DNA from: a bacterium
GTDB lineage: Bacteria; Patescibacteriota; Microgenomatia; UBA1400; UBA12108
Direction: 5' to 3'
Assembly (NCBI GenBank): GCA_021788365.1
Contig: JAJYKS010000001.1
Location: forward strand, 70,113 to 134,112
Length of the DNA stretch: 64,000 bases
Part shown: in pieces, positions 31,966-49,902 of the stretch
Numbering within the stretch: the first letter of the stretch is position 1
Layout: each line of letters opens with the position of its first letter
The notes under the pieces: generated by a model
What the model was told of the DNA's origin: nothing
Database searches by the model: none
The model's input: only the letters and a program-made list of their open reading frames with translations
Program-made: the position numbers and the translations under genes

Positions 31966-32040
31966 GGCCTCATCGTCTAGCCCGGTCTAGGACAGCGGGT
32001 TCTCATCCCGCTAACTTGGGTTCGAATCCCAATGAGGTCA
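31966..32040 (+). tRNA. tRNA-Glu (anticodon CUC)
   Basis: GGCCUCA-UC-GUCU-AGCCCGGUCUA-GGAC-A-GCGGG-UUCUCAU-CCCGC-UAAC-UUGGG-UUCGAAU-CCCAA-UGAGGUC-A; near-identical architecture to E. coli tRNA-Glu; no encoded CCA. Confidence 0.85.
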
Positions 32041-33703
32041 CAAGTAGCGACTGATCACGATTGAACTGCTCATTTAGGGCGATATATTCGGCTAAATTGG
32101 GTGTTCCAGAAATCAGATCGCTGTATGCTGGTGCAGTGTTAAAAAGTAGGCCAAAGTATATGGCTCGATTGATTGGATTTGAGCCTTCTAACAGCAATTT
32201 ATCGAGGTGTTCCAGAAAATATTTGATGGTTGCTGCGACTTCTTCTATATTGATATCTTTTTCGGGATCTTGAGCCTTTTTAAGGCTTAAGTCCTCGATT
32301 TGTTTTTCGATCTTGAGGAGATCCTCTTCCATAAACCGGATAGCGGTTTCTGAAGAAAGCATCTTGATTTTGTCGGCAATAAGCCTGGCCGACGTTTGCA
32401 GCTCTAGGATTTTTTGGTCAATATGAAGTTTATCTTTGTTTATCTCAGCCTGCCTTCTATTCCATTCCTTGACAACCTCCTCTTTGAACCGCTCGGCATA
32501 TTTAGGGGTTACATGGAGGCGTTTAACGAAGTTTAAGATCGTTAAATCAAATTCTTTTTTGGATACTCTGAAATAATGACCCCGTTTATTACAGTGATAG
32601 GCTGGGTAGTATTTTCCCATTTTACCGCGTGAGGCGCTGCCAAATAGAGGTTTTTTGCACTCGGGGCACATAACATAACGTTTATAGGGAAAATCGGGAT
32701 TTCGCACACCCTTTTTGACCAAATATCGGGGAGGAATATTGCGATAGATCTTGACGCTATCGTCTTCTTCAACAATCGTTACTTTCCCGCGGTTGGCCCG
32801 GTTAAACATATCGATAGTGACAATCCCGTCGTATTTGCCCTTTACTGGTTGTCCTTGTGTCCATTTCTCGACGTTTATGCCGGCGTATATCGGTCTTTGC
32901 AAATAGCGCCAAAGCTGCTTAATATGAAGTTTCTTACCGCCAAGTTTGCCGATTACCTGCTTTTTATCCTCATGAGATCGAATAAGGCGCGTTCGTGATC
33001 GAAAGGCAAGTTTATTCACCTCATCGACTATTTGCTCGTCGGTGAGTGTCCCTTGGATACGCAATTCAAACATTTTTAGTATCCAGTAGGACTCTTCTGG
33101 ATGCGGCTTGAGGATTATCCGTTTTCCGTGAGGAGTCTCAACCTTCTCATTAACATAACCAAAAGGCGCCTGACGTGCCCGATACCCAAGCCTGACGTAG
33201 CGGATTTCGGCGCCGATCATCCGACTCATGATATCGCGCATTTCGTCTTTTGCCCGTTCTGCTTCAAGAATTTCTGCTTTTTTGGTAGGGCTATAAACGC
33301 TCCAATTGTATTTGACACCGAGGTGTTCAAGCGTATTTACTTCTTGAGAGCCAATAATTCCGTAGATATCGACGAGTCTGACGCCGTAATTCGTCAGCTG
33401 CATTTTCAAAAAGTCATAGAAATAGGAGCCTCCGCGAGTGAAACGGTCAATCGATTTGATAATAAAAACATCGATGTGATTCTTGGGATTTTTGCAGTAG
33501 TCGATGGCCTCCTGGATCGGCTGCTGTTCTTTTGAGGCAGATTCCATAAATACAAAATATTTTTTGATCTGAAGGTTGTGTGTCTCAGCGAACCGATCAA
33601 TTTGCTCCTGTTGAGCTTGCGGAGAATCTCCTTGTAAACCCTGTTTGACTGATGAAACGCGGATTGCAGCGACTGCATTTTCCCGCTTTATTTCCATTTC
33701 CAT
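32003..33703 (-). CDS. large serine recombinase
   Basis: AIRVSSVKQ catalytic Ser motif, recombinase domain, zinc ribbon CPECKKP...YHCNKRGH and coiled coil; the last 38 nt are antisense to tRNA-Glu. Confidence 0.85.
   Translation of the reverse strand: MEMEIKRENAVAAIRVSSVKQGLQGDSPQAQQEQIDRFAETHNLQIKKYFVFMESASKEQQPIQEAIDYCKNPKNHIDVFIIKSIDRFTRGGSYFYDFLKMQLTNYGVRLVDIYGIIGSQEVNTLEHLGVKYNWSVYSPTKKAEILEAERAKDEMRDIMSRMIGAEIRYVRLGYRARQAPFGYVNEKVETPHGKRIILKPHPEESYWILKMFELRIQGTLTDEQIVDEVNKLAFRSRTRLIRSHEDKKQVIGKLGGKKLHIKQLWRYLQRPIYAGINVEKWTQGQPVKGKYDGIVTIDMFNRANRGKVTIVEEDDSVKIYRNIPPRYLVKKGVRNPDFPYKRYVMCPECKKPLFGSASRGKMGKYYPAYHCNKRGHYFRVSKKEFDLTILNFVKRLHVTPKYAERFKEEVVKEWNRRQAEINKDKLHIDQKILELQTSARLIADKIKMLSSETAIRFMEEDLLKIEKQIEDLSLKKAQDPEKDINIEEVAATIKYFLEHLDKLLLEGSNPINRAIYFGLLFNTAPAYSDLISGTPNLAEYIALNEQFNRDQSLLVTSLGFEPKLAG
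32026..32041. repeat. attL-side direct repeat (within tRNA-Glu 3' end and the integrase 3' end)
   Basis: Exact 16-mer atcccaatgaggtcac shared with 49887-49902. Confidence 0.6.
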
Positions 33704-33710
33704 ATCGTTT

Positions 33711-33914
33711 TTAGGTTACTTTTAACGTCCCCTGTCTTTGCATTTCCATGAGCCGGTCGACAATTACATTGGCTAAAATGTGTATCCGTTCCTGTGTGGA
33801 GAGTGATGACGCCACTAAACGTGTAAGATCGGCATTTTTCTTGTTTGCGGATGAAGAAATAGTATATACTTGGGTATTGGAGGCTAAAAGTTTATCAGTA
33901 TTAGACATAGTCAA
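33711..33914 (-). CDS. small hypothetical protein next to the integrase (possible RDF; speculative)
   Basis: 67-aa ORF, 8 nt from the integrase start. Confidence 0.3.
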   Translation of the reverse strand: MTMSNTDKLLASNTQVYTISSSANKKNADLTRLVASSLSTQERIHILANVIVDRLMEMQRQGTLKVT

Positions 33915-34002
33915 TGATTATTAACTATCCGTATACTGTTTATTTTAGACTCATCTTTTATGCTTGTCAAGAGCAATTAAGTGATTAAAGAAAAAAGCAA
34001 AT

Positions 34003-34227
34003 ATGTTAGGAAAACACAATCAAAAAGTATTAACCGCTTTAGGAGAAAAGCTAAAAAAGGCTCGTAAGAAGACTGGTTTAACCCAGGAGAAAGTAGCCGA
34101 AAAAGCGGGAATTCACGTCAATTTCTATGCAAGGGTTGAACGGGGTGAAGAAAATCCATCATTTGAGGTGTTAAATAAGATTGCCAAAATTTTGAAAGTT
34201 AAATCTTCGAATATCCTTCCAATTTAG
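34003..34227 (+). CDS. XRE-family HTH transcriptional regulator
   Basis: LKKARKKTGLTQEKVAEKAGIHVNFYARVERGEENPSFEVLNKIAKIL is a canonical Cro/C1 HTH. Confidence 0.7.
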   Translation: MLGKHNQKVLTALGEKLKKARKKTGLTQEKVAEKAGIHVNFYARVERGEENPSFEVLNKIAKILKVKSSNILPI

Positions 34228-34281
34228 CTAGTGTTTGATCGATCCTTTTAGTCTTTATTTCTTGTGAGTCTTCAGTTTTTG

Positions 34282-34963
34282 TTACTCGTAATATTCATTT
34301 TTTAAATCGAATCCATTTTCATCAATAACGAGATATTGGCCTATTCCATATTGAACCATTCCTGTATTAATAAAGTTTAAATTATTATCAATCTCGGCTA
34401 AATGTGTGTGTCCAAAAAGATAGAAATTATTTTTAGTCTGTTTATTTTTAATAATATTTTTGAGTTCTCTGTTCTGTTTTTCATATAGGAGTTTTAAGAT
34501 AAATTTATCTGATAACCTTATAATTTTCCCCGCTATTTTTTTAAAATACTTCGTTAACAACCTAGGAGGTCTCAGAATATTATCTTCGTCATTGAGGGCG
34601 TTATCAAGTTTGCTTAAAGATATATCATAATGATTTCCATGTTCTATGTGATAGGTCATATTTCCTATTTGAAGACGATATTTTTCTACTTGAATATCAG
34701 AGAAAAGTGATGTTTTTTTTATCCGTTAATGATTTTTTATCATGATTTCCATAAATATAGACTGTCTTCTTCGTTTTTAATAAAGGAAATAACTTTTTCC
34801 ATGGGGAATTAATAAAATCTGAAAAGCTGCAGATATAGGAATCCCAAAAATCACCGTTAATAATGACTCTGTCCACCTTAGAGATTATTCTTTTGAGAAA
34901 ATTGAATTTTTTTTCATCAAATTCTTCGTAGAGATGAGTGTCTGATAATACTATTGTTTTCAT
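34282..34963 (-). pseudogene. calcineurin-like metallophosphoesterase split by a frameshift
   Basis: Upstream ORF (34697-34963) has VLSDTHL...GDFWD...GNHD. Downstream ORF (34282-34659) has GHTH...G. The break coincides with a T9 homopolymer at about 34727-34735. Confidence 0.55.
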
Positions 34964-35033: not shown

Positions 35034-37907
35034 GTGAGCACAGCCACGATTACACCCATACCGACTGCCACTTTATCCTCAACTGATCTTGAGCAGCTGC
35101 AGCTACTTCATCAAATCCAGAACCACGTTATGTCTGTAAATCATGCATTCCTGCTTACGGTAGCACTTGGACTACCACTTCCGATTAGCTGGCGATTGGC
35201 GTTTTACCACTTTTTAATCTCATTACCATTTCCCGCGCTTTCTCCTGTAGGTTTTACTCTCCTTGTTGTTCTTGGGCCGATTGTTACCATTCTTTTCCTT
35301 GTTCTTATTGTGAAGGTCATCGTTTGGTTTATTCGAACAGTAATTCCTTTTGCTGCCTCCAAAACAATGAAAACAACTCGTACGAATACCTATTTGGAAT
35401 TAACCTTTCCTGCCGATACCAGTAAATCCGCGTATGCTACCGAACAGTTGTATACACTAATTCACACCCTGGCCAAAAGAATATCATCTGCCGATTCGTT
35501 TCTGGGAAGAAAGAAACAGTTTTCGCTTGAGATTGTTTCAACCAAAAAAGAGGGAATCCGTTATTTGATGGTGGCGCCTGAGAAAGATGCCGAGATTTTA
35601 AAACGAAGTCTGTTATCGTATTTACCCGGTATAAAAATCAGTAAAGTTGACGATTACCTCACCGAGAAAAGAAGTGCCAGTGATGTAAGTAAAACAATTG
35701 TTGATCTGAAATTATCCAGTCATTTTGCCTTGCCTTTGACCAAACAGAAATCGTTATCTGAAAACGATCCTATTTCATATCTCACCGGTCAAATGGCGTC
35801 TTTAGAGGTTGGGAGCTTGGTTGCCTTTCAGTTAATTGCCACACCAGTACTAAATTCTTTCCATCAAAGCCAGGTCAAAGAAATGTACACGCTCCGACAA
35901 AAGATGTATGGGTCAGAAGCGTTAACTCCGGTATTACAAAAAGGACTTTTTGACCAACTCGCCACTATTCCGGTACTTTCCATTTTTGTTTTAGCGATTG
36001 AGGTTGTGTGGAAGATAGTTTCATTCGCTTTTATGTTTGTCTTTAGTATGTTTTTGGGATTTATCGATCCTCAAAGTAAATCCATACCGTTTTTAATGAC
36101 AACACAGGCTCTAGATAAGGCAATTCCCAGGGAGATATTAAACCCGTACGAGCAGGAGCTAAAAACGGTCGTCAAAGAGAAAATCGATCAACAGTTATTT
36201 GAATGCTCAATACGGATTCTGATTATGGGAAAGGACCAAGCTGATATTGAGAGTCGGTTAGAGGGGATTATGTCGTCGTTTGGCATGATGAGTAGCGCGT
36301 ATCAGTCGATCGTTGCTAAAAGCTCATTTATTGCACATTCTTTTGCCAGACGGTTTGCTGATTTTTCCCAAAGAAGGTTGTCTACAAATACCGGTTTTAA
36401 TCAAAATCCCATTCTTTCTGCCTCAGAACTATCCGATATTTACCATTTCCCATATACCGATACGACCAAAACAGAAGATTTGGTAAAAGTTCATAGCCGG
36501 GATTTACCGGCGCCCTTATCCCTGAAACAGGGAAAAAGATTGGACGTCGTTTTCGGTCGGAATAGCTACGGCAGCCAGACAACCGATATTGGCCTTACCG
36601 ATGATGACCGTTCCCGCCACGTCTACATTCTTGGCCAAACTGGTTCGGGTAAGACAACTATTATTTTCCATATGGCCAAAGGAGACATTCAAAAAGGCCG
36701 AGGCTTGGCTGTTATTGATCCTCATGGTGATTTAGCAGAGGATTTGCTGGCTACTATTCCTCCTGATAGGAAAAACGATCTTGTTTATCTTAATCCCTAT
36801 GATCTGAAATACCCGATCGGAATTAACCTTTTGGAACTGACGCCCAACCAAGACGAGGGTATGATGGAACTCGAAAAAGAACTAGTTTGTGAAGGCGTTA
36901 TTTCAATCTTTCGCCGCGTGTTTTCAAAAGATGAAAATGTCGACGCTCACCGGATCGAGTATATTTTGCGAAATACGATCTATACGGCCTTTACGGTTCC
37001 AAGCGCAACGCTTTTTACGATCTATGATCTATTAAATAACCCGCAATATCAAAAAAGCATAGTGAATAAACTCCATGACGAAAATCTGAAGAATTTTTGG
37101 AAATCAGAGTTTGGTCGGGCTGGCAACTATCAGATAGTGAAAATGGTATCCGGCGTGACAGCAAAAGTCGGAAGGTTCTTGTTTTCTCCTATTGCCAAAA
37201 GAATTCTGGAGCAGCCCAAATCGACCATTAACTTCGATAAGATTTTGGATGAGCAAAAAATTCTTATCTGTAACCTGTCCGAAGGAAAAATCTCGGAGGA
37301 CACAATGCAGCTACTGGGAATGACGATCGTTACTAAAATTCATCAGGCGGCCCTGCGACGGGCAAGAGTGAGTGCCAAACAAAGAACACCGTTTTATCTC
37401 TTTATCGACGAATTCCAGAATTTTGCTACCGCTTCATTTACCAGACTGCTATCCGGTGGACGAAAATTCGGCTTGAGACTAACTGTCGCTGAACAATCAA
37501 CCTCCCAACAGGAAGATAGGAATGTTGTGAATGTTATTCTAGCTAACGTCGGAACCGTTATTTGTTTTCGAACGGCAAGCCCGATTGATGAAAACCTCAT
37601 GCTTGCCCAGTTTTCTCCCTACGTTAAACCAGGAGAAATTGTCAATCTGCCACGATACAAGTTCTTTATGAAAATGTCAGCCATTGAGCCGGAGGAACCG
37701 TTCTCAGGAACCACACTCTCTATTGAGGAAAAGCGCAACCAGGACAAAATTAACGGCCTAATTGAATCCTCAAGGCGTAACTGGGCAAAAAAATACGTGC
37801 CGAAAGAACCAGTTGTCGTTCCAGTGGATAATAATCAACAAAAGATTGTTAAACAGGACAGCACACCTTCTAAAAGAGGTGGATTACCAGGTTCGAAAAG
37901 GAGATAA
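35034..37907 (+). CDS. type IV coupling protein-like P-loop ATPase (VirD4/TraD/TrwB-HerA superfamily) with N-terminal TM anchor
   Basis: N-terminal TM helices; Walker A HVYILGQTGSGKTT followed by VIDPHGDL (cf. TrwB VIVDPNGD / HerA VIDPHGEY); Walker B/DEFQNF region; basic C-terminal tail. Confidence 0.6.
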   Translation: MSTATITPIPTATLSSTDLEQLQLLHQIQNHVMSVNHAFLLTVALGLPLPISWRLAFYHFLISLPFPALSPVGFTLLVVLGPIVTILFLVLIVKVIVWFIRTVIPFAASKTMKTTRTNTYLELTFPADTSKSAYATEQLYTLIHTLAKRISSADSFLGRKKQFSLEIVSTKKEGIRYLMVAPEKDAEILKRSLLSYLPGIKISKVDDYLTEKRSASDVSKTIVDLKLSSHFALPLTKQKSLSENDPISYLTGQMASLEVGSLVAFQLIATPVLNSFHQSQVKEMYTLRQKMYGSEALTPVLQKGLFDQLATIPVLSIFVLAIEVVWKIVSFAFMFVFSMFLGFIDPQSKSIPFLMTTQALDKAIPREILNPYEQELKTVVKEKIDQQLFECSIRILIMGKDQADIESRLEGIMSSFGMMSSAYQSIVAKSSFIAHSFARRFADFSQRRLSTNTGFNQNPILSASELSDIYHFPYTDTTKTEDLVKVHSRDLPAPLSLKQGKRLDVVFGRNSYGSQTTDIGLTDDDRSRHVYILGQTGSGKTTIIFHMAKGDIQKGRGLAVIDPHGDLAEDLLATIPPDRKNDLVYLNPYDLKYPIGINLLELTPNQDEGMMELEKELVCEGVISIFRRVFSKDENVDAHRIEYILRNTIYTAFTVPSATLFTIYDLLNNPQYQKSIVNKLHDENLKNFWKSEFGRAGNYQIVKMVSGVTAKVGRFLFSPIAKRILEQPKSTINFDKILDEQKILICNLSEGKISEDTMQLLGMTIVTKIHQAALRRARVSAKQRTPFYLFIDEFQNFATASFTRLLSGGRKFGLRLTVAEQSTSQQEDRNVVNVILANVGTVICFRTASPIDENLMLAQFSPYVKPGEIVNLPRYKFFMKMSAIEPEEPFSGTTLSIEEKRNQDKINGLIESSRRNWAKKYVPKEPVVVPVDNNQQKIVKQDSTPSKRGGLPGSKRR

Positions 37908-38016: not shown

Positions 38017-38790
38017 ATGTCTATTACTAATTGCTCAAAATCAGAACAACGAATTATTTCCTTTCTTTACTCATTCCGTTATTTACAAATTAAACAGATA
38101 CAAAAGTTATTTGATCATAAATCACCCAATCGAATTAAAATCTGGCTTAAACATTTACTGACAAATCATTTTATTTATGCCATTACAAACAAAAAAGACA
38201 GAACGAAACCGTATATTTATTGTTTGGATCAAAAAGCAAGCAAAATAGTAAGTGAGGTGATAAAAAAGGAAGATTTGGATAAAAGTTTTACCAATCGGAT
38301 ATACAAGGAAAAATCGTACAGCAGGAAGTTTATCAACAGAAACCTTTTTATCGTTGACTGTTATTTATATTTCTTAAAACATAAAGAAAAAGATTCAACG
38401 ATAAACTTTTTTACGAGACAAGATCTGTATGGCTATTCCTATTTCCCAAAACCCTTGCCAGACAGCTATATCGATGAGGAGGTAAAAACCGGACATAACA
38501 GATATTTCCTTGAGGTTTTTAGCTATAACGTTCCTATCAAATATCACTTTCAAAGAATTGAATACTATTTTGATTACTTTGATGATGGGCAGTGGAAAGA
38601 AAATACCAATGGCGCACCATTCCCGTCGCTTCTGATCGTGTGTGCCAATAACCAGTTAAAAAGAAAAATTTTCTTTCATGCAAAATCACTATTGGAACGA
38701 TCGTATGATGAAATTAGTGTCTTTCTAGCCACGGCCGACAAGATTACTCGGAATGATGAGAATGTTTGGGATGAAGTTAGAGTTGACTGA
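38017..38790 (+). CDS. replication-relaxation family protein (candidate relaxase)
   Basis: N-terminal wHTH QRIISFLYSFRYLQIKQIQKLF typical of Replic_Relax proteins of mobilizable elements. Confidence 0.55.
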   Translation: MSITNCSKSEQRIISFLYSFRYLQIKQIQKLFDHKSPNRIKIWLKHLLTNHFIYAITNKKDRTKPYIYCLDQKASKIVSEVIKKEDLDKSFTNRIYKEKSYSRKFINRNLFIVDCYLYFLKHKEKDSTINFFTRQDLYGYSYFPKPLPDSYIDEEVKTGHNRYFLEVFSYNVPIKYHFQRIEYYFDYFDDGQWKENTNGAPFPSLLIVCANNQLKRKIFFHAKSLLERSYDEISVFLATADKITRNDENVWDEVRVD

Positions 38791-42947: not shown

Positions 42948-43328
42948 ATGAGACCAAAAGCGTTGAGTAATCTCGAACTAGAAATTATGAAGGTGGTTTG
43001 GGAGTGTCAGCGATGTTCAGTACGTGATGTATTAAGGCAGGTAGGCAACAGCCGTAAACTAGCTTATACGACTGTGGCTACCATTCTTCAGCGACTGCAT
43101 AAAAAAGGACTCGTTGAGAGAAAAAGTGACAAACTTGCATATATTTATTCCCCAATGCTATCCAAAAAATCATACGGTAAACAACTGACAGAGTTATTTA
43201 TCAAAAGATTTGTCAGGTCCTTTGGTGATGTGGCGATTGCCTCGTTTGCAGAAGGGATAGAAAGTCTGCCTCTGCAAAAAAGAAACAATTTACTGACACA
43301 ACTTCAGAACTATGATAAATCAAAATAA
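42948..43328 (+). CDS. BlaI/MecI/CopY-family transcriptional repressor
   Basis: LSNLELEIMKVVWECQRCSVRDVLRQV...YTTVATILQRLHKKGLVERK is a penicillinase-repressor-type winged helix. Confidence 0.8.
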   Translation: MRPKALSNLELEIMKVVWECQRCSVRDVLRQVGNSRKLAYTTVATILQRLHKKGLVERKSDKLAYIYSPMLSKKSYGKQLTELFIKRFVRSFGDVAIASFAEGIESLPLQKRNNLLTQLQNYDKSK

Positions 43329-44307
43329 ATATCTCCTCTTATTTTTGGGTCTGCTTTTTCTCCTTGGCATTGGTGTGGTGATTGACCTCGGCAAAGTGCT
43401 TCATTTGACTTTTCAGCATACTGCCTATTATTGTCAGGCATTCATAAAGTCATTCTCGCTAAGAATTCCTCACAGCTTAGGAACATTCCTTCTTTTTTTT
43501 ATCGGAGCCAGCGTCATGGCGGCAGCAGTGAAATTATTGAGCGCGTATATTCAGATTCATACAATGAAAAGATCACTTCGTCGGAACGTTATTGTTAATG
43601 AAAGTTTTCAGTTGATTTTGAAAGGGCTTAACCTAACCCATCAGGCACTACTAATAAAAGACAATAAACCATTTGCGTTTTGTTTTGGCCTACGGCGTCC
43701 GAAAATTTATCTTTCTACTAAGATGTACAACCTATTGGAGCAAAAGGAATTAGAAGCGGTACTCTTGCATGAAAGCTACCATTTACAAAAGAGCGATACC
43801 TTAACCCTGTTTGTGGCATCTTTTGTACAATTTCTCTTTCCTTTTTTTCCTGTAGTTTCAGATCTTGTCCGAAACTACAGAATAGAGCGAGAATTAAATG
43901 CCGACAAGGAAGCTCTTAAATCTATTAGCGATCCTGATATCCTTTTAAATACTTTTAAAAAGCTTTTCGTATATACAAATACTAATCCGGCATTTGTTTC
44001 AGCGATTATAGATAGCGAAACAATAGAATCTCGTATAAAGGCCCTTACAGCGCAAAACTTTTTGTGGCGGAAGTTTAGTACGAAAAATATGTTTATTTCT
44101 CTCCTTTCGTTTTCAATCTTCTATTTACTGGCGCTTGCACCCGTCTTTGCGATAAAACAAAATAATAAAAATAGTGAAGTAATGATATGCACAGTAAGCA
44201 ATGATTGTTCTCGTTGGTGTAGAGAGCATAGTACTGTTACTCCAAACATACCTTCTAGATCTCCAAATACATCATATCCCTATACCCCCGTCGTTCACTC
44301 CATATAG
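43312..44307 (+). CDS. BlaR1/MecR1-type M56 membrane metalloprotease without a beta-lactam sensor domain
   Basis: KPFAFCFGLRRPKIYLSTKMYNLLEQKELEAVLLHESYHLQKSD (HExxH) matches M56; 4+ TM; Cys-rich C-terminal tail (CTVSNDCSRWCREHS). Confidence 0.8.
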   Translation: MINQNKYLLLFLGLLFLLGIGVVIDLGKVLHLTFQHTAYYCQAFIKSFSLRIPHSLGTFLLFFIGASVMAAAVKLLSAYIQIHTMKRSLRRNVIVNESFQLILKGLNLTHQALLIKDNKPFAFCFGLRRPKIYLSTKMYNLLEQKELEAVLLHESYHLQKSDTLTLFVASFVQFLFPFFPVVSDLVRNYRIERELNADKEALKSISDPDILLNTFKKLFVYTNTNPAFVSAIIDSETIESRIKALTAQNFLWRKFSTKNMFISLLSFSIFYLLALAPVFAIKQNNKNSEVMICTVSNDCSRWCREHSTVTPNIPSRSPNTSYPYTPVVHSI

Positions 44308-44314
44308 TTTCGTC

Positions 44315-44354
44315 TTGACAACTATTTAATTATCTACTACATTTAGTAGTAGAT
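44315..44354 (+). promoter_or_regulatory. candidate promoter (TTGACA-N17-TACATT) overlapping palindrome ATCTACTAC-attta-GTAGTAGAT
   Basis: 9-bp perfect inverted repeat seen in sequence; shares a CTACA-N3-xGTAG core with the site at 42932. Confidence 0.4.
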
Positions 44355-44374
44355 CGGTTGATAAATTCCCTGAA

Positions 44375-45115
44375 ATGATTACTATGGCAGAAGAGATGAA
44401 TAAAAGAATAAATATTAAAGTAATACTAGTTGGTCTTTTAGTCATTGCCGCCTTTCTTATCGGCTCACTTTGGACCAAAGTACAAATGTTAGAGAAAGGG
44501 ACAACTGTAGCTAGTGCTACTGCTACCGTCCCAAACCAACCCAATCAACCACAAGCTCCTGCACCCGGACAAAAAGTAAATGTCTCTGTGGGACACTTGC
44601 CTCCTAAAGGAAATCCAAATGCCAAAGTAAAAATTGTCGCATTTGAAGATTTCCGTTGTCCGTTCTGCGACAGATTTTTTAAAGATGCCGAAGCGCAAAT
44701 TATTAAAGATTACGTAGATACAGGTAAAGCGGTTATTTACTACAGAAATTATCAGTTCTTAGGTCCGGCGTCAGTTGTTGCCGGCAATACCGGCGAATGC
44801 GCCAATGAACAGGGTAAATTCTGGGAGATGCATGATTACCTCTATCAAAATCAACCAGATGAATCAGATACATCAATGTATACCGTTGATAAACTTACAT
44901 CTATCGCTTCAAATCTTGGTTTAAGTGGTGACAAATTCAAGTCATGCTTAGAAAGTAAAAAATATGATAAGAATGTAGCTGATGATTTAAGCGCCGGACA
45001 ACAAGCAGGTGTACAAGGGACACCCACAGTCTTTATCAATGGCATATCAATTGTTGGGGCACAACCGTACAGTACATTTAAAACAATAATTGATCAGCAA
45101 CTAGCAAAATTATGA
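44375..45115 (+). CDS. DsbA-family thiol:disulfide oxidoreductase (membrane-anchored)
   Basis: N-terminal anchor; thioredoxin fold with CPFC active site (KIVAFEDFRCPFCDRF); DsbA-like helical insert. Confidence 0.7.
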   Translation: MITMAEEMNKRINIKVILVGLLVIAAFLIGSLWTKVQMLEKGTTVASATATVPNQPNQPQAPAPGQKVNVSVGHLPPKGNPNAKVKIVAFEDFRCPFCDRFFKDAEAQIIKDYVDTGKAVIYYRNYQFLGPASVVAGNTGECANEQGKFWEMHDYLYQNQPDESDTSMYTVDKLTSIASNLGLSGDKFKSCLESKKYDKNVADDLSAGQQAGVQGTPTVFINGISIVGAQPYSTFKTIIDQQLAKL

Positions 45116-45684
45116 AGAAGATATTTAGCAAAAAGTTTCTTATAAAAACTTTACTCATTGCCGCAGTGTATCTTATCACAATCAATTATTTGATGAATAT
45201 CTCATTAGTAAAAAATACTATTCTTGGTAGTTATCCACTAGGTTATAAATTTAGACTACTTGGTGACCTTTTAGAAGGTATGTGGACCGTAATGACGCAC
45301 GTAACCTTATTTGTTCTTATACTAAATTCTTTACTTACCGGTGCTATTTTAACCCTTCTTGAACAAAAAATTAGGATATTACGAGAAATGGGCCCCTTAC
45401 ATATCCTGGCAGGAGGAAGTACATTCCTTTCGATTGTAGGAAGTGGTTGTGCTGCCTGTGGGCTACCCATCCTTTCACTTCTGGGACTCAGTGGGGCTGT
45501 GCTTTATCTCCCTTTTAAAGGCGGAGAGCTTCTTTACATATCGTTTGTACTTCTTCTTAGCTCCTTCTACTTTATAGCCAAAGATTATGTTTCAATTCAA
45601 TGTTCCTGGGAGCAGAAGAAGAATAGTTCTTTTACGAAACCTGTTTTAAAGACTTTTGTAGGTCATATTGACGCTAGAAACTAA
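45112..45684 (+). CDS. membrane protein with intramembrane CxxC module (paralog of the TM part of 46431-48095)
   Basis: LSIVGSGCAACGLPILSLLGLSGAVLYLPFKGGEL aligns with IGAFAASCPVCSGLLLSLIGISGGLSVFPFKGLEL of the downstream gene. Confidence 0.5.
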   Translation: MKKIFSKKFLIKTLLIAAVYLITINYLMNISLVKNTILGSYPLGYKFRLLGDLLEGMWTVMTHVTLFVLILNSLLTGAILTLLEQKIRILREMGPLHILAGGSTFLSIVGSGCAACGLPILSLLGLSGAVLYLPFKGGELLYISFVLLLSSFYFIAKDYVSIQCSWEQKKNSSFTKPVLKTFVGHIDARN

Positions 45685-45686
45685 AT

Positions 45687-46418
45687 ATGCGGAAATTGTT
45701 TGCGATCATAAAAGAAAATAAATTACCTGCAATCATACTCGTAGTAGCCGTATTGATGATCGGATTTTTTGTGGCTAACACTTTTCATACGAATAGTACC
45801 AATAGTCAACCGACTACTAGTCAAAACACAAATTCTCTTTATCAGGAACTCTTAAGTATCTACAATAACATTCCCACTCAATCTGGAAAAACTAATTTTC
45901 TCAAACAAAGCAATAACCTCACCCAAAAAGTTGATCCGGAACTCGTAGATTTAGATAGTCAAATCATTACCTGTAGTGCGAATGTGGATAGTCTTCTTTC
46001 CAGTCAGCCAAGCACCGGTGGTAGTTGCGTTGGGGGAAACACCCCCTTAAGTAGCATAAAGGGGAAATATTTAAGCGGTCAATGCTGCGGAACCCTCATG
46101 GATACCAAAGAAAGGCATGAGAATCTTGAAAAATTACAAGCCTATAAAGGTATGCCAGATATTCCGCTTGATCCCATGCATACACCTATTGAGATGGCAA
46201 AAGGATGGATCGACTATGATAACTCGACCCAACTTACATCTGAAGAACAGAAAGTTTACGATCAGGCATACGCCATATCAAAAGAAAAACCCTGTTGCTG
46301 CAAATGCTGGCACTATTTTGTCAACGAAGGCATTGCCAAAAAAATGATAAAAGACGGTACATTTAATTCAAAACAGATCGCTGACTATTGGGATGCCTCA
46401 GATATTTGCGGAGTATGA
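45687..46418 (+). CDS. membrane-anchored cysteine-rich extracytoplasmic protein (PCC...C.H domain)
   Basis: N-terminal TM anchor; GQCCGTL and LTSEEQKVYDQAYAISKEKPCCCKCWHYF align with LTTEQEEHIRTLAENIYRPCCNNSTFFQDCNHG of 46431-48095. Confidence 0.5.
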   Translation: MRKLFAIIKENKLPAIILVVAVLMIGFFVANTFHTNSTNSQPTTSQNTNSLYQELLSIYNNIPTQSGKTNFLKQSNNLTQKVDPELVDLDSQIITCSANVDSLLSSQPSTGGSCVGGNTPLSSIKGKYLSGQCCGTLMDTKERHENLEKLQAYKGMPDIPLDPMHTPIEMAKGWIDYDNSTQLTSEEQKVYDQAYAISKEKPCCCKCWHYFVNEGIAKKMIKDGTFNSKQIADYWDASDICGV

Positions 46419-46430
46419 AAATAAAGAGCT

Positions 46431-48095
46431 ATGGAAAAATCAATAAGAAGAGAAAAAGAGTATCAGTGCCCAATTTGTAAATTGCATTATAAAGAAAGGG
46501 TTTGGGCAACCAAATGTAAAGCATGGTGTAGCAAACATGAAAGCTGCAATTTAGCTATTACTCGCCATTCACTTGAAGCAAAAAATGATAATATCGAAAA
46601 AACAGCTATTCAACAAAGAGACACTCTTTCCCATACAGAAACAAGAGACTCAAAACACGAGAAACAATCAAGTCAAAGATTACTGACCTTTCTTTTTTAT
46701 CTCTTAATTGGTATAACCGCCTCGATTGGGCTTTTTCTCCTCTATGATTTCTTTCTTACCAGAACCTCAAGTATCACCACGCTTATTCTTAATACTGTAA
46801 ACGATCCTTTTTACCTGTGGTTTTATAGTCTCTCCACGTTTGTAGCAATCATTCTTTTTGGTATTGATGTCGCAGTTTCCATCTATCTATTCAGGAGCTT
46901 ACACGTAGCTCATTTAAAGGAACAGGGCGGCAATACGGTGGGGGTTATTATTGGAGCCTTTGCCGCTTCTTGTCCTGTCTGCTCAGGACTTCTTCTCTCT
47001 CTTATCGGCATTTCAGGAGGACTGAGTGTTTTTCCATTTAAAGGACTTGAGTTAAAGACACTTTCGGTACTCTTTCTCGCTGTGCCACTTTTCTTCCTTT
47101 TGAGGAGATTAAAAAGTCATAACTGTGAAGATACCTGTTCACATCTAGAAAACGCCGCGTTTCAAACAAAAGATCGTGTACTCTTTGGTTCACTTTTTGT
47201 CTTTTTGCTTGCCGAAATACTTCTTGGTTACTCTTTTCTTCGTGCAGAGCCTATTCTAGCGGATTTATTTTATCCCATCCCGAAAGCCACTACTTCAGCT
47301 ACTGCTCCTAATGCGCAGCTATCGCAGCAAGTACAACAAGAAGTATTACCCACCAGTGGGTTTCAAACTCCAATAGTTTTGGGTAAGGTGATTCCAGAAA
47401 TGGTAGCAAACGGTATTATTGATGTCCAAAAACTCCAAGATTTGTATAAGGAGCGGGGTGGTATCCCCCAAGAGGAGATGGATCTTTTGACAAAGCAGTC
47501 AGACAAACCGTTAGTAATTACAAGCAAAAACCAGTTCTGGCTTGTCACTTTTCTCTGGCCTTTAGGATTAGCAAATAAAATGATTATTAATAACCAGAGC
47601 CCTCTCGCCGGTAAAGATTTATTTAATTTTGCCTCAACCGGGGGTTGGAATTTGGGTCAAGCGAAAAATGGAGGCAGTTACTTTAACCAATATTCAATTA
47701 TTCCCCTGACTACGGAACAAGAAGAGCATATAAGAACTCTTGCCGAGAATATATACAGACCATGTTGTAACAACTCAACCTTTTTCCAGGATTGTAACCA
47801 CGGTTCAGCCGCGCTTGCTCTCATTGAACTTGGTGTAGCCCAAGGTTTATCAGATCAGGAAATCTATAAAACAGTCCTTCATTTTAACTCTTTCTGGTTC
47901 CCACAAAATTACACGGAGATGGGCTTATACTTCAAAGCCGTAAAACATACTGATTGGAATGATGTTGATCCAGAGCTAGCTCTGTCGAAAGACTATTCAA
48001 GCATTAGTGGCTGGTCTCAAAATGTCGATGCCCCAATTCGCCAAATTCCAGGACTTTTGCCAGCCCAAAATGGTGGTGGGAGCTGTGGTACATAG
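46431..48095 (+). CDS. fusion protein: N-terminal zinc ribbon, CxxC membrane module, C-terminal PCC cysteine-rich domain
   Basis: YQCPICKLHY...CKAWCSKHESC; TM region with ASCPVCSG...PFKGLEL; C-terminal domain with PCCNNS..CNHG; ends GGGSCGT. Confidence 0.5.
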   Translation: MEKSIRREKEYQCPICKLHYKERVWATKCKAWCSKHESCNLAITRHSLEAKNDNIEKTAIQQRDTLSHTETRDSKHEKQSSQRLLTFLFYLLIGITASIGLFLLYDFFLTRTSSITTLILNTVNDPFYLWFYSLSTFVAIILFGIDVAVSIYLFRSLHVAHLKEQGGNTVGVIIGAFAASCPVCSGLLLSLIGISGGLSVFPFKGLELKTLSVLFLAVPLFFLLRRLKSHNCEDTCSHLENAAFQTKDRVLFGSLFVFLLAEILLGYSFLRAEPILADLFYPIPKATTSATAPNAQLSQQVQQEVLPTSGFQTPIVLGKVIPEMVANGIIDVQKLQDLYKERGGIPQEEMDLLTKQSDKPLVITSKNQFWLVTFLWPLGLANKMIINNQSPLAGKDLFNFASTGGWNLGQAKNGGSYFNQYSIIPLTTEQEEHIRTLAENIYRPCCNNSTFFQDCNHGSAALALIELGVAQGLSDQEIYKTVLHFNSFWFPQNYTEMGLYFKAVKHTDWNDVDPELALSKDYSSISGWSQNVDAPIRQIPGLLPAQNGGGSCGT

Positions 48096-48168: not shown

Positions 48169-48552
48169 ATGATGTTTACATACATGTGTAGAACTTGTGG
48201 CTGTTCATTTAGGTCAAGAGATTTTGGTAATGTAGAGAGATTTATTGAGCCATGTATCTTATTACTTCTCTCAAAAGATTCTTCTCACGGATATGGTCTG
48301 ATGGAGGATTTAGAAAAGCATTGCGGTGAAAAAGTGGATATTGGCGATTTTCATAGAACCTTAAGAAGGATGGAAAGGGATGGTTGGGTCAAATCCGACT
48401 GGGAAAAGAATGAGGCTGGTGCTGATAGGAGAGTCTATACGATTACCCAAGAAGGTAAAGAATTCTTAAAGTCAGCGGCTAACTCACTTATCCGTACAGA
48501 CAAACTTATACATAAATTTTTAGAGGGTTTCCAAAAGAGTCAATCTGTATGA
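48169..48552 (+). CDS. PadR-family transcriptional regulator
   Basis: ILLLLSKDSSHGYGLMEDLEKH...FHRTLRRMERDGWV...RRVYTITQEG is a PadR winged helix; the N-terminal Cys-rich extension is of uncertain reality. Confidence 0.6.
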   Translation: MMFTYMCRTCGCSFRSRDFGNVERFIEPCILLLLSKDSSHGYGLMEDLEKHCGEKVDIGDFHRTLRRMERDGWVKSDWEKNEAGADRRVYTITQEGKEFLKSAANSLIRTDKLIHKFLEGFQKSQSV

Positions 48553-48643
48553 AATTGTCAATAATTCTTTCTACCAAAAATACGGAAACAAATTGGAACG
48601 CATTCAGACTTGCTAATCTGGCTTTAACTCACGGAGATGTGAG

Positions 48644-48910
48644 CTATTTAACGGCCTTCTTTTGTTTCAGCTCGTTATAAATTTTAAGTAGTGTTTCCGG
48701 ATCCTTATGACTCATCGTGTGAACTGTTGCCTGCAAATGCTCAAGTAAAACTATTGCCATTTCAGGTGTAGCATTTTTAGGATCGATAGTTTTTAGGAAT
48801 CGGATAACACTATCGATATCCTTTTCGTTCATTTCGTATCTGTCGGATTTAGTCATACCGTTATTATACAACACGTTAGTAAATATACTTTCCCAGGTTG
48901 ATAAAATCAA
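48644..48910 (-). CDS. hypothetical protein
   Basis: 88-aa ORF (apparent TTG start with GGAG RBS); no family recognised. Confidence 0.3.
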   Translation of the reverse strand: MILSTWESIFTNVLYNNGMTKSDRYEMNEKDIDSVIRFLKTIDPKNATPEMAIVLLEHLQATVHTMSHKDPETLLKIYNELKQKKAVK

Positions 48911-49418
48911 AACACTCCTGAACGTGGCTTTTGCTTTCGATCCTGCGCATAATCTCCCGGCTGCAGCTTTGAGAAAGAATATTTAAGCTTCCTTCCCAAA
49001 GAATTTGCCGATCAATGATCGCCAATTTCCTGTGGCTATATTCTGCCGAAAGAAGCACTTGAACGCCAAGCATTTCCAGCTTTCTTATTTCCTGCTCTGC
49101 CTGCGTTCTCATGGTTAAATCGTGATCTTCGGGATTTCGGGTGATAACGTATATTTTTACCTTTCTGCTAACTAAGGCTTCAAAAATCCGCAGGAACGAA
49201 AACATCCTGGTGGTTGTTATATATGGGCTTTCGATTATAATCTCCTTTTTGGCGGCCTTTAAGTCCTTCAAAAACCGGTTGTAAAACGTCGTCTCGTCAA
49301 AAAGTTGGGAATGGGTAAGATCCGGCGATAAGTGTAGGACCCTTTCTGCCAATTTGCTAATTAGCTTATTCATGGGTATCACCTCCGTTCTTGTTTGTGG
49401 CTGAATTATCGGGTACAA
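48876..49418 (-). CDS. PLD-family (HKD) nuclease-like protein
   Basis: SHRKLAIIDRQILWEGSLN is an HxK(x4)D(x6)GSxN HKD motif, single copy (Nuc/Bfi-like). Confidence 0.6.
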   Translation of the reverse strand: MYPIIQPQTRTEVIPMNKLISKLAERVLHLSPDLTHSQLFDETTFYNRFLKDLKAAKKEIIIESPYITTTRMFSFLRIFEALVSRKVKIYVITRNPEDHDLTMRTQAEQEIRKLEMLGVQVLLSAEYSHRKLAIIDRQILWEGSLNILSQSCSREIMRRIESKSHVQECFDFINLGKYIY

Positions 49419-49565
49419 TCAGGCTAACTGAGCCGTTATGGTAGGTAAACCCTAGCTCTTTGAGTTTCTGATATACTTTGAGTAAGTTAGGAAAGAGTGA
49501 GTTCCACCTGGCGGACAGTGAGCTCACCCTTCGACAAGCTCAGGGTTTTGGCGGATTATATAGAC

Positions 49566-49865
49566 ATGGCATGGTACACATATATTCTTCTTTGCGATGG
49601 ACTGTCTTATTATGTTGGGTTGAGTGGTAATTTGGAACAAAGAATTGCTTCGCATAAATCCAAGCAAAATATCGGCACAAAAGAATTTTCCCAGATAGAG
49701 CTTGTTTACCACGAAACCTACAAGACCCGCCATGAAGCAGAACTACGTGAAACACAACTCAAGAAATGGAGTAGAGCAAAGAAGAAAGCTTTGATAGATG
49801 GAGACATTGGTACATTGCGAAAGCTAAGCCATAACCCTAAACTTGTCGAGGATACATTGGGATAA
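49566..49865 (+). CDS. GIY-YIG nuclease family protein
   Basis: MAWYTYILLCDGLSYYVGLSGNLEQRIASHK is the GIY-YIG core; start set at the internal Met. Confidence 0.65.
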   Translation: MAWYTYILLCDGLSYYVGLSGNLEQRIASHKSKQNIGTKEFSQIELVYHETYKTRHEAELRETQLKKWSRAKKKALIDGDIGTLRKLSHNPKLVEDTLG

Positions 49866-49886
49866 TAATGGTGAGCCCGTCGAACC

Positions 49887-49902
49887 ATCCCAATGAGGTC
49901 AC
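49887..49902. repeat. attR-side direct repeat (copy of the tRNA-Glu 3' end)
   Basis: Exact 16-mer atcccaatgaggtcac with further degenerate T-arm-like similarity upstream (gcccgtcgaacc). Confidence 0.6.

Follow-up and report, generated by a model that had tools for sequence, protein, structure and literature searches.

The streptococcal integrative mobilizable elements (IMEs) of Firmicutes resemble the island described here in being compact, in encoding their own integration functions (in some cases a serine recombinase), in having a non-canonical relaxase, frequently accompanied by a coupling protein of their own, but no mating pore, and in occupying precise target sites bounded by direct repeats. 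However, their coupling proteins are mostly TcpA/FtsK-like and their relaxases mostly Rep-related, with PF13814/MOBC in only two (PMC5357655, PMC5704250), whereas the island has a CPR host, a serine integrase at a tRNA 3' end, and a phylum-wide integrase family. SCCmec/Ccr also uses a large serine recombinase for insertion at the 3' end of a conserved housekeeping gene, with repeats of ~15-18 bp, but its target is rlmH rather than a tRNA, it is without a T4CP or relaxase module, and the integrases are only distantly related. The actinomycete ICEs pSAM2 and SLP1 are 10-17-kb elements in tRNA genes with a replication/relaxation-type protein and a single membrane DNA translocase; they differ in their tyrosine integrases and in relying on an FtsK-like TraB, which transports double-stranded DNA and needs no T4SS (PMC2440964). 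ICETh1 of Thermus thermophilus is similar in size (14 kb), lies at a tRNA 3' end between direct repeats, and encodes a site-specific recombinase, a DNA-translocating ATPase, and nucleases, but its repeats are 47 bp long, its TdtA ATPase belongs to another family, and it mediates T4SS-independent transfer of generalized chromosomal DNA (PMC5365140).

Two further comparisons concern the transfer genes. Plasmids of Bacillus sp. BC1-43 (NZ_CP086062), Embleya (NZ_CP108778), and Desulfosporosinus (pDESACI.01) also carry, within conjugation clusters, an ATPase gene followed directly by a Replic_Relax gene on the same strand, as in the island. Their ATPases are distant homologues (21-26% identity), kinship of the Replic_Relax proteins is at the Pfam-family level only, and these plasmids differ in having VirB4-like, PrgI, 'conjugal transfer protein', or cell-wall hydrolase genes beside the pair and in not being integrated by the island's integrase. 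With the MOBC relaxases TraX of pAD1 and MobC of CloDF13, the island's Replic_Relax protein shares the PF13814/PD-(D/E)XK-superfamily assignment and the joining of a DNA-binding domain to a nuclease-like alpha/beta domain, but there is no experimental link, and its Pfam score (24.2) is just below the gathering threshold (25.3).

The island lies in a 64,000-nucleotide stretch of DNA (the window) from a Microgenomates (Patescibacteria/CPR) host, an ultra-small bacterium of the candidate phyla radiation. We consider it probable that it is a pore-less IME of an ICE/IME family, an interpretation in which transfer between cells is inferred. Its features are as follows.

31966..32041, + strand: tRNA-Glu(CTC), target of integration and attB side of attL (ARAGORN; Rfam RF00005, 55.8 bits)
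32026..32041, + strand: attL core, 16-bp direct repeat, final 16 nt of the tRNA gene
32003..33703, - strand: large serine recombinase (integrase, int), 566 aa (PF00239, 41.6 bits; PF07508, 18.8 bits)
33711..33914, - strand: small ORF of 67 aa directly upstream of int
34003..34227, + strand: XRE-family HTH regulator (PF01381, 59.2 bits; in 15 related loci)
34282..34963, - strand: metallophosphoesterase split in two ORFs (PF00149 on 34697-34963; PF12850 on 34282-34659)
35034..37907, + strand: membrane-anchored T4CP-like (VirD4/TraD/TrwB superfamily) ATPase, 957 aa (DUF87, TrwB_AAD_bind, TraG-D_C)
38017..38790, + strand: Replic_Relax protein (PF13814, MOBC-superfamily), N-terminal winged helix and C-terminal alpha/beta domain
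39137..39625, + strand: relic of a second Replic_Relax gene that differs from the first (C-terminal half)
39695..42378, - strand: mercury-resistance (mer) block of four genes between the relaxase region and DUF2958 (GC 0.466)
39695-40099, - strand: MerP-like HMA protein (below cutoff)
40102-40473, - strand: MerT-like protein (below cutoff)
40470-41873, - strand: MerA (TIGR02053, 526.7 bits vs cutoff 454)
41860-42378, - strand: ArsR-type regulator of the mer block
42348..42653, - strand: DUF2958 protein, conserved backbone gene of unknown function (PF11171, 55.7 bits)
42948..48095, + strand: cargo operon with BlaI/CopY-type repressor, BlaR1-like M56 protease, and secreted DsbA-like thioredoxin (Pfam)
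48169..48552, + strand: PadR-family regulator (PF03551, 59.4 bits)
48644..49418, - strand: 88-aa protein and PLD-family (Nuc-like) nuclease (PF13091, 57.3 bits)
49497..49865, + strand: GIY-YIG nuclease-domain protein, final gene before attR (PF01541, 55.6 bits)
49887..49902, + strand: attR core, second copy of the 16-bp repeat

Integration at tRNA-Glu(CTC)

The window contains exactly two copies of the 16-mer ATCCCAATGAGGTCAC, both on the + strand and at the two core positions; no third copy with up to two mismatches is present in the window, and two matches appeared in none of 100 dinucleotide shuffles. Because ARAGORN ends the tRNA gene at 32041 (Rfam gives 31966-32040), the left copy is its final 16 nt, while host DNA, the end of an SDR gene, restarts at 49903 right after the right copy. 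GC content is 0.400 across the 17,845 bp that separate the copies vs 0.490 in the flanks (equal-length windows outside the island all reach at least 0.475), and the tetranucleotide distance from the flanks doubles within the island, at 0.031-0.038 vs 0.016-0.021 outside, with both measures breaking at both island ends. Four other assemblies of the same Microgenomates population contain the empty site: their contigs (L085-L088) are 99.7-99.96% identical to the island's left flank, and the tRNA core runs directly into the right flank at 49887, the 16-nt overlap being the core itself. Given the exact repeat, the empty sites joining at the core, and the composition breaks, integration at tRNA-Glu between 16-bp repeats is well supported. 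The crossover must lie within the core, and the tRNA gene remains intact once the element is integrated.

A sequence-only reading of the locus had proposed this insertion, with an exact repeat and a backbone more AT-rich than the flanks, and had named windowed GC and k-mer profiles as checks; the recount, the profiles, and the empty sites bear it out. Its authoring model would have abandoned the idea had the block been present at this locus in all relatives with no empty sites, which is not the case. Of the two junctions it suggested looking for, the empty attB was found, but we found no attP contig from an excised circle, nor any other direct sign of present activity. The T-arm similarity that it saw to the left of the right-hand repeat is weak: the two core-adjacent bases differ, and any farther match needs indels.

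The integrase and its family

The integrase is a large serine recombinase, as judged from its Pfam and PHROG matches (phrog_95 integrase, 3.7e-38), from residues R15/S17/Q21 and C346/C349/C371, which are invariant in a 19-sequence alignment, and from Foldseek, whose top matches are full-length serine integrase complexes (E 1e-15). Its sole NCBIfam match, to CcrB, is very weak. It is not a tyrosine integrase; the sequence-only reading had located the gene without recognizing its type or the element's membership of a large Patescibacteria family. The ORF passes through the attL core and ends 39 nt into the tRNA gene.

Homologues 55-73% identical occur in 80 other species genomes, mostly labelled Patescibacteria. 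Where sequence extends past the gene, 59 of 67 homologues have an int that enters the 3' end of a tRNA gene in antisense orientation or, in a single case, only reaches it. The int stop codon lies within a tRNA gene at 59 of 81 loci (the window and 80 relatives); at L006 it stops at a tRNA-end fragment. The targeted tRNAs are mostly Glu, Gln, and Lys, and integrase clades follow tRNA identity. Cores of the 16-bp type were seen elsewhere only via tandem remnants in two relatives (L006 and L068), the far ends of the relatives not having been reached. tblastn places equivalents of the 67-aa ORF immediately upstream of int at 13 or more loci; the ORF has no Pfam or PHROG match and is, by inference only, a candidate directionality or regulatory factor. 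We found no published description of this family of islands.

Transfer genes and the missing pore

The order of the conserved backbone (integrase, ATPase, Replic_Relax, DUF2958) is fixed across related loci. The ATPase, found in 56 of 80 of them, is 957 aa long counted from the first start (the public gene call begins at 35130 and gives 925 aa), with residues 60-109 and 304-346 forming hydrophobic stretches and the Walker A and B motifs at 534 and 788, respectively; it also matches SXT_TraD and VirD4-like CD1115. The Replic_Relax gene occurs in 54 loci, and DUF2958 in 30 related loci at a fixed position past it. PF13814 corresponds to the MOBC relaxase superfamily (PMC5357655), and the Replic_Relax protein is a candidate for the element's relaxase, although its catalytic D/E/K residues are not clearly conserved and could not be confidently assigned in a 14-sequence alignment, and its profile matches those of plasmid Replic_Relax proteins only weakly (E 0.015 and 0.22). 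No oriT was identified. In Patescibacteria at large, 5,713 VirD4-like T4CPs have been reported, mostly distant from virB4, and recognized relaxases are few (PMC12102498).

VirB4, PrgI, VirB2-like pilin, TrbL/VirB6-like, CHAP hydrolase, and other pore genes are absent from the island and from the whole window. Only some family members encode pore genes: the ICE-type members carry VirB4-like, PrgI, VirB2-like pilin, TrbL/VirB6-like, and CHAP hydrolase genes beside the shared backbone. On a Kitasatospora plasmid, a 'replication-relaxation family protein' gene lies three genes upstream of an ATPase homologue. The regulator, coupling protein, relaxase, and DUF2958 genes named from sequence alone are real, the absence of a mating pore holds, and the proposed dependence on a helper conjugative system is strengthened, both because monoderm conjugation clusters use the ATPase/Replic_Relax pair for DNA processing and because sister islands with the same integrase and backbone carry the pore genes; actual transfer is still inferred.

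Alternatively, the element could be self-transmissible without a T4SS, its ATPase itself exporting DNA as TraB does in actinomycete AICEs or TdtA in ICETh1, with Replic_Relax nuclease preparing the DNA and uptake occurring through the competence/type IV pilus machinery common in Patescibacteria. ICETh1, a tRNA island with a hexameric ATPase, needs no T4SS (PMC5365140); the island ATPase has N-terminal hydrophobic segments and also matches HerA/DUF87-type models, and 168 of 197 plasmids with homologues are typed non-mobilizable. We nevertheless regard this as unlikely. The nearest solved relatives of the ATPase (profile vs PDB) are the coupling proteins TrwB (2.5e-9) and DotL (3.4e-8), not FtsK or HerA, and in plasmids and sister islands alike the pair adjoins genes for VirB4, PrgI, pilin, or hydrolase, which points to channel-dependent transfer in the family.

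Cargo, decay, and the proposed life cycle

The accessory genes predicted from sequence alone (mer cassette, BlaI/BlaR-headed Cys-rich operon, PadR, PLD and GIY-YIG nucleases) are all present. The mer block is absent from related loci, and the cargo operon, which also encodes three unknown proteins rich in Cys (190, 243, and 554 aa), either membrane or secreted, is matched only sporadically in relatives; the PLD gene is found again, with the 88-aa ORF and/or an XRE gene, in L005, L063, L071, and L072. The split metallophosphoesterase, in the lowest-GC kilobase (0.30), is likely a pseudogene. The second Replic_Relax gene had been taken for a truncated duplicate of the first; both are real, but the relic is only 31% identical to residues 126-255 of its neighbor and up to 63% identical to the L057 gene, so it derives from another lineage of the family rather than from local duplication, and it marks a mosaic or accretion junction.

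The split phosphoesterase and the relic show some decay, and the island could be immobile between cells, perhaps still integrating and excising, its T4CP-like and Replic_Relax genes being leftovers of an ancestral ICE or serving to maintain or replicate an excised circle. All pore genes have been lost relative to ICE-type relatives, the lack of an attP contig fits, and every assembly that has the island has it at the same site. Yet int, ATPase, and Replic_Relax are intact full-length ORFs, the pore-less set of int, T4CP, Replic_Relax, and DUF2958 recurs (in 10-kb views) in dozens of species, and the island is present or absent among strains ~99.9% identical in the left flank, which points to recent gain or loss; we give this possibility only a small chance. 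A prophage or phage satellite is scarcely credible despite the tRNA-end integration and XRE regulator typical of prophages and a full-length ATPase match to phrog_5156, as the island has no capsid, portal, tail, or lysis gene, the only structural-category PHROG match among 10 island proteins scanned is a weak one of the ATPase to a terminase family over Walker A, and integrase relatives are absent from 2.9 million IMG/VR contigs, with one weak match in 50,697 phage records.

Under the favored interpretation as a pore-less IME, the serine recombinase put a circular element into the final 16 bp of tRNA-Glu(CTC), the element's own 16-bp copy restoring the tRNA; attP overlaps the 3' end of the int ORF, so that integrated int reads across attL into the tRNA. 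These integration steps can be deduced from the sequence together with the empty sites, while excision, DNA processing, and delivery are inferred. Excision would probably be aided by an unidentified directionality factor. The island is a mosaic: a backbone of int, XRE, T4CP, and Replic_Relax is followed by the Replic_Relax relic, a mer operon that was inserted, DUF2958, and an arm of cargo genes in the place of the pore genes of ICE-type relatives. The island belongs to a large Patescibacteria family combining tRNA-targeting serine integrases with conjugation-type transfer genes. In this host, the MOBC-type Replic_Relax protein, with its restriction-endonuclease fold, would process DNA at an unidentified oriT, and the membrane ATPase would pass the processed DNA on to a type IV secretion channel. 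The element itself lacks genes for such a channel, which could be supplied by an ICE-type relative or by a chromosomal MPF-FATA-like T4SS common in Patescibacteria.

Site-specific insertion at the 3' end of a tRNA-Glu gene

The island lies between two copies of a 16-mer, ATCCCAATGAGGTCAC, that occurs exactly twice in the 64-kb window. Its main features are these:

31966-32041: tRNA-Glu(CTC) as predicted by ARAGORN (31966-32040 by Rfam)
32026-32041: attL core, the left 16-mer copy and final 16 nt of the tRNA gene
32003-33703 (-): int, the island integrase, 566 aa
33711-33914 (-): 67-aa ORF upstream of int
35034-37907 (+): ATPase resembling type IV coupling proteins (T4CPs)
38017-38790 (+): Replic_Relax, a PF13814 protein
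39137-39625: fragment related to Replic_Relax
48644-49418 (-): 88-aa ORF and PLD nuclease gene
49887-49902: attR core, the right 16-mer copy

A recount bears out the exact 16-mer at both positions that the sequence-only reading had given, with no third copy in the window at up to two mismatches and two matches in 0 of 100 shuffled sequences. The further similarity to a T-arm claimed for the right copy is only weak: a pattern lengthened by two bases into the T-loop has two mismatches there, which limits the exact repeat to 16 bp. As that reading had supposed, the 17,845 bp enclosed by the repeats are AT-rich relative to their surroundings (GC 0.400 vs 0.490 in the flanks); every equally long stretch outside the island has a GC content of at least 0.475, and in windowed profiles the tetranucleotide distance to the flanks is doubled across ~32 to 50 kb.

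The presence of the same block at this locus in all relatives would have refuted the insertion, and an exact-sequence look-up of the flanking NUDIX protein instead led to four contigs with empty sites, each with its junction at the core: GCA_021839925.1 (L085) and ENA ERZ27237587, ERZ27237554, and ERZ27237541 (L086-L088). On these contigs the short-chain dehydrogenase (SDR) gene found at window position 49908 comes immediately after the NUDIX gene and tRNA-Glu, and BLAST alignments to the window run at 99.7-99.96% identity up to 32041 and resume at 49887, the 16-nt overlap being the core. The sequence at the empty sites, ...GGGTTCGA-ATCCCAATGAGGTCAC-CGACATTACC..., is the predicted attB; a fifth contig (L090) stops one base past the core, and that base is the one in attB. 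Occupied copies are present in the window's own assembly, in Logan SRR13170411, and in ENA ERZ27233565. The island is thus a recent presence/absence polymorphism with its boundaries exactly at the 16-bp repeat, inserted site-specifically into the 3' end of tRNA-Glu with regeneration of the tRNA. The data place the crossover only somewhere within the 16-bp identity.

The attP site reconstructed from these junctions reads ...GGTGAGCCCGTCGAACC-ATCCCAATGAGGTCAC-AAGTAGCGACTG.... An excised circle was sought through contigs carrying the island's PLD gene, and all four of them held the integrated form; a degenerate attL/attR/attB/attP pattern had no match in JGI metagenome contigs, and a 21-mer from the tRNA 3' end had none in GTDB species genomes. 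Dyad symmetry in attB and attP was uninformative, reaching at most 11 of 22 positions with no best centre within the core.

Two further observations concern the right end. In a perfect 9-bp inverted repeat in 49855-49895 (CATTGGGAT ... ATCCCAATG, 23-nt spacing), one arm is formed by the first 9 nt of the attR core and the other by element DNA close to the right end, so the repeat would be in attP too; by a rough estimate, chance alone would give about 0.1 repeats of this kind in the stretch that was scanned. The right flank of L085 and L086, with its SDR genes, is 86% identical to window 49887-51070 (left flank, 99.9%), and in the other two empty-site contigs the first 141-325 nt of the right flank are 98.8-100% identical; these differences indicate that a diverged or recombined tract starts next to attR.

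A serine integrase gene overlapping attP, and its relatives at tRNA genes

Insertion into tRNA genes is textbook behaviour for tyrosine integrases, the usual type at such sites; int belongs instead to the large serine recombinases. It matches Resolvase (PF00239) at 41.6 bits (cutoff 23.3) and a PHROG integrase family at 3.7e-38; its match to Recombinase (PF07508), at 18.8 bits, falls under the cutoff of 21.1, and many homologues have a precomputed PF07508 match. Among 19 family members, R15, S17, and Q21 of the R-x-S...Q motif are invariant, as are C346, C349, H370, and C371. In the AlphaFold model (pLDDT 70.7), a catalytic domain and a long helix (142-171) are joined by recombinase, zinc-ribbon, and coiled-coil parts; an alpha/beta domain spans 183-330, and after beta strands at 354-381 come helices at 400-448 and 452-477. 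The catalytic-domain and zinc-ribbon/coiled-coil criteria for a serine integrase are both satisfied. In Foldseek searches the full length of the model aligned to the N-terminal and recombinase domains of phiC31 integrase (4bqq) and to whole integrases: the top matches were full-length att-bound serine integrase complexes (9y66, 9dxh) and Bxb1 (9iu2), at E 1e-15 to 2e-12, and the wider set took in att-bound complexes, Bxb1, phiC31, TP901-1, and TnpX (E 1e-15 to 1e-2). Sequence searches of the PDB, with a single sequence or a profile, gave no match, and the link to solved integrases is made through the predicted structure only.

The int ORF has no stop before the crossover region, crosses the attL core, and ends 23 nt beyond it within the tRNA gene, so attP and the 3' end of int overlap. 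In the reconstruction of the excised form, the int stop would fall nine codons further on and the tail would differ. Integration thus changes the C-terminus of the protein: it ends in ...VTSLGFEPKLAG (566 aa) when integrated and would end in ...VTSLGWFDGLTIIIPMYPRQV (575 aa) in the excised form.

More than 1,800 relatives of int are present in databases, the best 120 at 60-72% identity. A scan of one genome per species gave 234 int loci, the best 80 of which were fetched; all locus counts here come from these. By record title they are mostly Patescibacteria (Roizman-, Shapiro-, Levy-, and Daviesbacteria, WWE3, including the complete genome CP006914, and Saccharibacteria). Many records that carry the backbone are titled "uncultured Gammaproteobacteria" or "uncultured Pseudomonadales" and a few Methanobacterium, Micrarchaeota, Methylococcaceae, or Limisphaerales; judging from the titles alone, these are likely to be placeholder labels or mis-binned contigs.

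In 58 of the 80 relatives, as in the window, the int stop codon lies inside an antisense tRNA gene, and in one more (L006) the ORF ends in a duplicated tRNA-end fragment. The contig ends within 80 nt of int in 13 others and no tRNA was found in 8, so that int runs into a tRNA gene or tRNA-end fragment in 59 of the 67 relatives with sequence beyond it. In the relatives where a tRNA follows int, the ORF stays open as far as the tRNA end (in L006, as far as the duplicated fragment). The targets, counting the window's own locus, are tRNA-Glu (25), Gln (14), and Lys (11), and also Arg, Val, Ser, Asn, and Asp, and the identity of the target tracks integrase clades. The tails read from the tRNA fall into two frame classes, "G[FLIV]EP" and "GDPTGNRTP", that follow the clades; the amino acid sequence of the tail is thus not what is conserved.

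Some related loci differ in the structure of the site. Extra tandem copies of the tRNA 3' end lie between int and the full tRNA-Glu in L006 (2100-2345; two copies, each followed by the same 50-nt sequence) and L068 (11638-11879; one copy with a single mismatch), which suggests repeated use of the site; the copies look like remnants of earlier integrations or accretion. Accretion may also be seen in L043, where an inverted int-like gene, the second at this locus, lies downstream of tRNA-Gln together with a separate set of T4CP, Replic_Relax, and DUF2958 genes (10142-16104), and in L072, where a relic of another int gene (1-159) adjoins the PLD end of an island; we had considered L072 as a circular contig and rejected this on finding that its first 159 nt are that relic. 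The eight loci with flanking sequence and no tRNA (L002, L014, L024, L031, L034, L037, L041, and L064, the last with a degenerate T-arm-plus-acceptor-like sequence after int) may be decayed sites, non-tRNA targets, or attP-like junctions. A search of the relatives for a far-end repeat (exact matches of at least 11 nt, and 20-mers with mismatches) gave nothing above shuffled controls within 10 kb, and 11-mers in L075 and L077 could not be extended.

The window holds a second large serine recombinase (5757-7307, +, 516 aa; Resolvase 77 bits, Recombinase 28.6 bits), unrelated to int at the sequence level (19% identity, E 0.17). Its ORF ends within an antisense tRNA-Pro(GGG) at 7286-7359 (-), with an overlap of 22 nt. 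The ORFs upstream of the recombinase gene are unknown, in a region somewhat low in GC. In 1-5757 the tRNA-Pro end is not repeated over 10 nt or more, so any far end is probably beyond the window.

A conserved, putative DNA-processing module without pore genes

Searches of the fetched loci with the island proteins (tblastn) recovered the backbone in one constant order, which runs from DUF2958 through Replic_Relax, the ATPase, and a small ORF or XRE gene to int beside the tRNA. Of these loci, 56 have the ATPase, 54 have Replic_Relax, and 30 have DUF2958. With hydrophobic stretches at 60-109 and 304-346 and Walker A (GQTGSGKT at 534) and Walker B (YLFIDE at 788) motifs that are invariant in 19 sequences, the ATPase meets the T4CP criterion of an N-terminal membrane anchor plus a P-loop NTPase. 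It scores over the Pfam cutoffs for TrwB_AAD_bind (34.9 bits) and TraG-D_C (24.1 bits) and also matches DUF87; a profile search of the PDB placed the coupling proteins TrwB and DotL best, with HerA behind. Its scores against the NCBIfam T4CP models are all far under cutoff, and HerA/DUF87 models match as well.

Replic_Relax is a candidate MOBC-type relaxase, its nicking activity inferred. Its PF13814 match, at 24.2 bits, is just under the cutoff of 25.3 and spans model positions 3-187 of 191; 13 of 14 family members match (best E 2.7e-7). PF13814 has been grouped with MOBC relaxases (PMC5357655) and assigned a PD-(D/E)XK fold (PMC3424549), and the structural model of Replic_Relax (pLDDT 88.7) combines a winged helix with an alpha/beta domain resembling a nicking endonuclease. 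The catalytic residues could not be pinned down, and repeat and hairpin scans gave no convincing oriT. The subfamily profile finds 765 cluster representatives at E <=1e-10. A tblastn search of PLSDB plasmids with Replic_Relax gave no match, and hhalign comparisons with single plasmid Replic_Relax proteins were weak.

Plasmids offer a link to conjugation through the ATPase. PLSDB has 197 plasmids with a distant homologue (21-32% identity), most of them from Bacillus, Streptomyces, Clostridium, and archaea, and 168 of the 197 are typed as non-mobilizable by MOB-suite. On plasmids of Bacillus sp. BC1-43, Embleya, and Desulfosporosinus, the gene immediately after the homologue, in the same orientation, codes for a "replication-relaxation family protein", and the pair has conjugation-type neighbours. 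In Bacillus these are "conjugal transfer proteins" and a VirB4-like ATPase; in Embleya, PrgI, an ATP-binding protein, and an NlpC/P60 hydrolase; and in Desulfosporosinus, an SLT transglycosylase. On a Kitasatospora plasmid the replication-relaxation gene lies three genes upstream of the homologue; it is missing from four other contexts. The four plasmids with the gene beside or near the ATPase, three of them with it among conjugation genes, are all typed "non-mobilizable", and this type of relaxase seems to escape standard mobility typing.

With the Embleya VirB4-like and PrgI proteins as probes for pore genes, VirB4-like ATPases (P-loop_TraG, 80-88 bits) were found in six sister islands: L005, L011, L017, L029, L061, and L071. 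Further T4SS genes lie beside the backbone in three of these: PrgI and VirB2-like pilins in L029; PrgI, VirB2-like pilins, and a pilin-TrbL/VirB6-like fusion in L011; and a CHAP hydrolase with a PrgI-like ORF (tblastn only) in L061. The pore genes of L011 come just past DUF2958, in the place of the window element's BlaI/BlaR cargo arm. The sequence-only reading had held that the island lacks VirB4 and a mating pore, and this stands: none of its ORFs is a VirB4, PrgI, pilin, or VirB6 gene, and tblastn of the window with VirB4-like, PrgI, and "conjugal transfer protein" queries from the plasmid clusters found no match, the first two of these queries matching sister islands. With pore genes in sister islands and none in the window, the family spans ICE-type and pore-less members; the window's element is, on its gene content, of the pore-less, mobilizable type, its mobilization being inferred.

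The rest of the island is a mosaic. The fragment at 39137-39625, which the earlier reading took for a truncated duplicate of the relaxase gene, is only 31% identical to the adjacent Replic_Relax and 63% identical to that of L057, and a local duplication is rejected. After it comes a mer block of higher GC (0.466), whose MerA meets the criterion for mer-operon MerA (TIGR02053 equivalog, 526.7 bits, cutoff 454.45); the MerT and MerP models match under their cutoffs, and the regulator is of the ArsR/SmtB type, not the MerR type. In the distal cargo the regulators are a BlaI/CopY-type repressor and PadR; with them are a BlaR1-like protease, a DsbA-like protein, three Cys-rich proteins whose function is unknown, a GIY-YIG protein, and the PLD nuclease. 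The PLD gene turns up in some relatives as well, accompanied by the 88-aa ORF, an XRE gene, or both. Related loci lack the mer genes and most of the cargo or have them only sporadically. A metallophosphoesterase gene (34282-34963), in the island's most AT-rich kilobase (GC 0.30), is split into two ORFs, and the public gene call gives the same two fragments.

The Cys-rich genes adjoin the DsbA-like and BlaI/BlaR1-like genes. Across 45112-48095, Cys pairs lie in hydrophobic stretches (GSGCAACGLP in a 190-aa protein, AASCPVCSG in a 554-aa protein), and PCC-type clusters occur in a 243-aa protein and the 554-aa protein. Separately, genes for a heavy-metal P-type ATPase and a DsbD_2-cupredoxin protein lie in the host flank at 60626-63864. 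Roles of the Cys-rich cargo in metal or thiol stress are suggested and are untested.

Classification, transfer, and significance

The element is best read as an IME, an already known kind of element, with relaxase function and mobilization inferred: its integration module, defined ends, and empty sites fit that class, as does the lack of a complete pore set, and the VirB4/pore criterion for a T4SS-type ICE is not met. We propose that the element would excise, that its DNA would be processed by Replic_Relax, and that the T4CP-like ATPase would deliver it to a T4SS supplied in trans, either by an ICE-type relative or by a chromosomal MPF-FATA-like T4SS, a system widespread in Patescibacteria (PMC12102498). 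Alternatively, the DNA could be exported without any T4SS, as in ICETh1 or AICEs, or the island could be decaying and no longer transferable. A prophage or phage satellite is rejected, since int has no relative in IMG/VR and only one weak match among GenBank phages, and the sole match in a structural category among the island proteins scanned is a weak one of the ATPase to a terminase (phrog_2666, 32.3 bits) confined to residues 527-570 in the Walker A region.

A survey that covered 2,168 genomes placed only 14 of its 297 serine-integrase islands at t(m)RNA genes, a use of these genes by serine integrases that "has not been reported previously" (PMC7192596). The comparison of loci made here extends this to a whole, highly conserved serine-integrase clade that targets tRNA genes systematically, with exact empty sites confirming one case, and attP and attB pairs are now at hand for a new serine-integrase group. 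We found no description of this integrase or island family in the papers searched, and very little is known about mobile elements in CPR bacteria (PMC12023590). In Patescibacteria, a 2025 survey counted 5,713 VirD4-like T4CPs, thousands of them far from virB4, and only 109 relaxases; the words integrase and recombinase do not occur in a text search of that paper (PMC12102498). The backbone of int, T4CP, Replic_Relax, and DUF2958, together with ICE-type members carrying VirB4, PrgI, pilins, and VirB6-like genes, is a testable candidate for those missing pieces.

The SecA encoded in the window is 73-74% identical to proteins named "Microgenomates group bacterium" and "Candidatus Microgenomates bacterium", which places the host in the Microgenomates, within the Patescibacteria (CPR). 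For the Microgenomates population studied here, the polymorphism means strain-level gain or loss of mercury resistance and of thiol- or metal-related cargo. More tentatively, and with considerable doubt on our part, the element may belong to a phylum-wide family of Patescibacteria islands in which a dedicated serine-integrase clade at tRNA 3' ends goes together with many of the "orphan" VirD4-like T4CPs and a cryptic MOBC-type relaxase missed by typing. If this is true, DNA would still be moved by the T4SSs of Patescibacteria, for which co-option away from conjugation is now argued, and the ICE and IME elements described here would be a main vehicle of gene flow in CPR bacteria, for example of mercury resistance.
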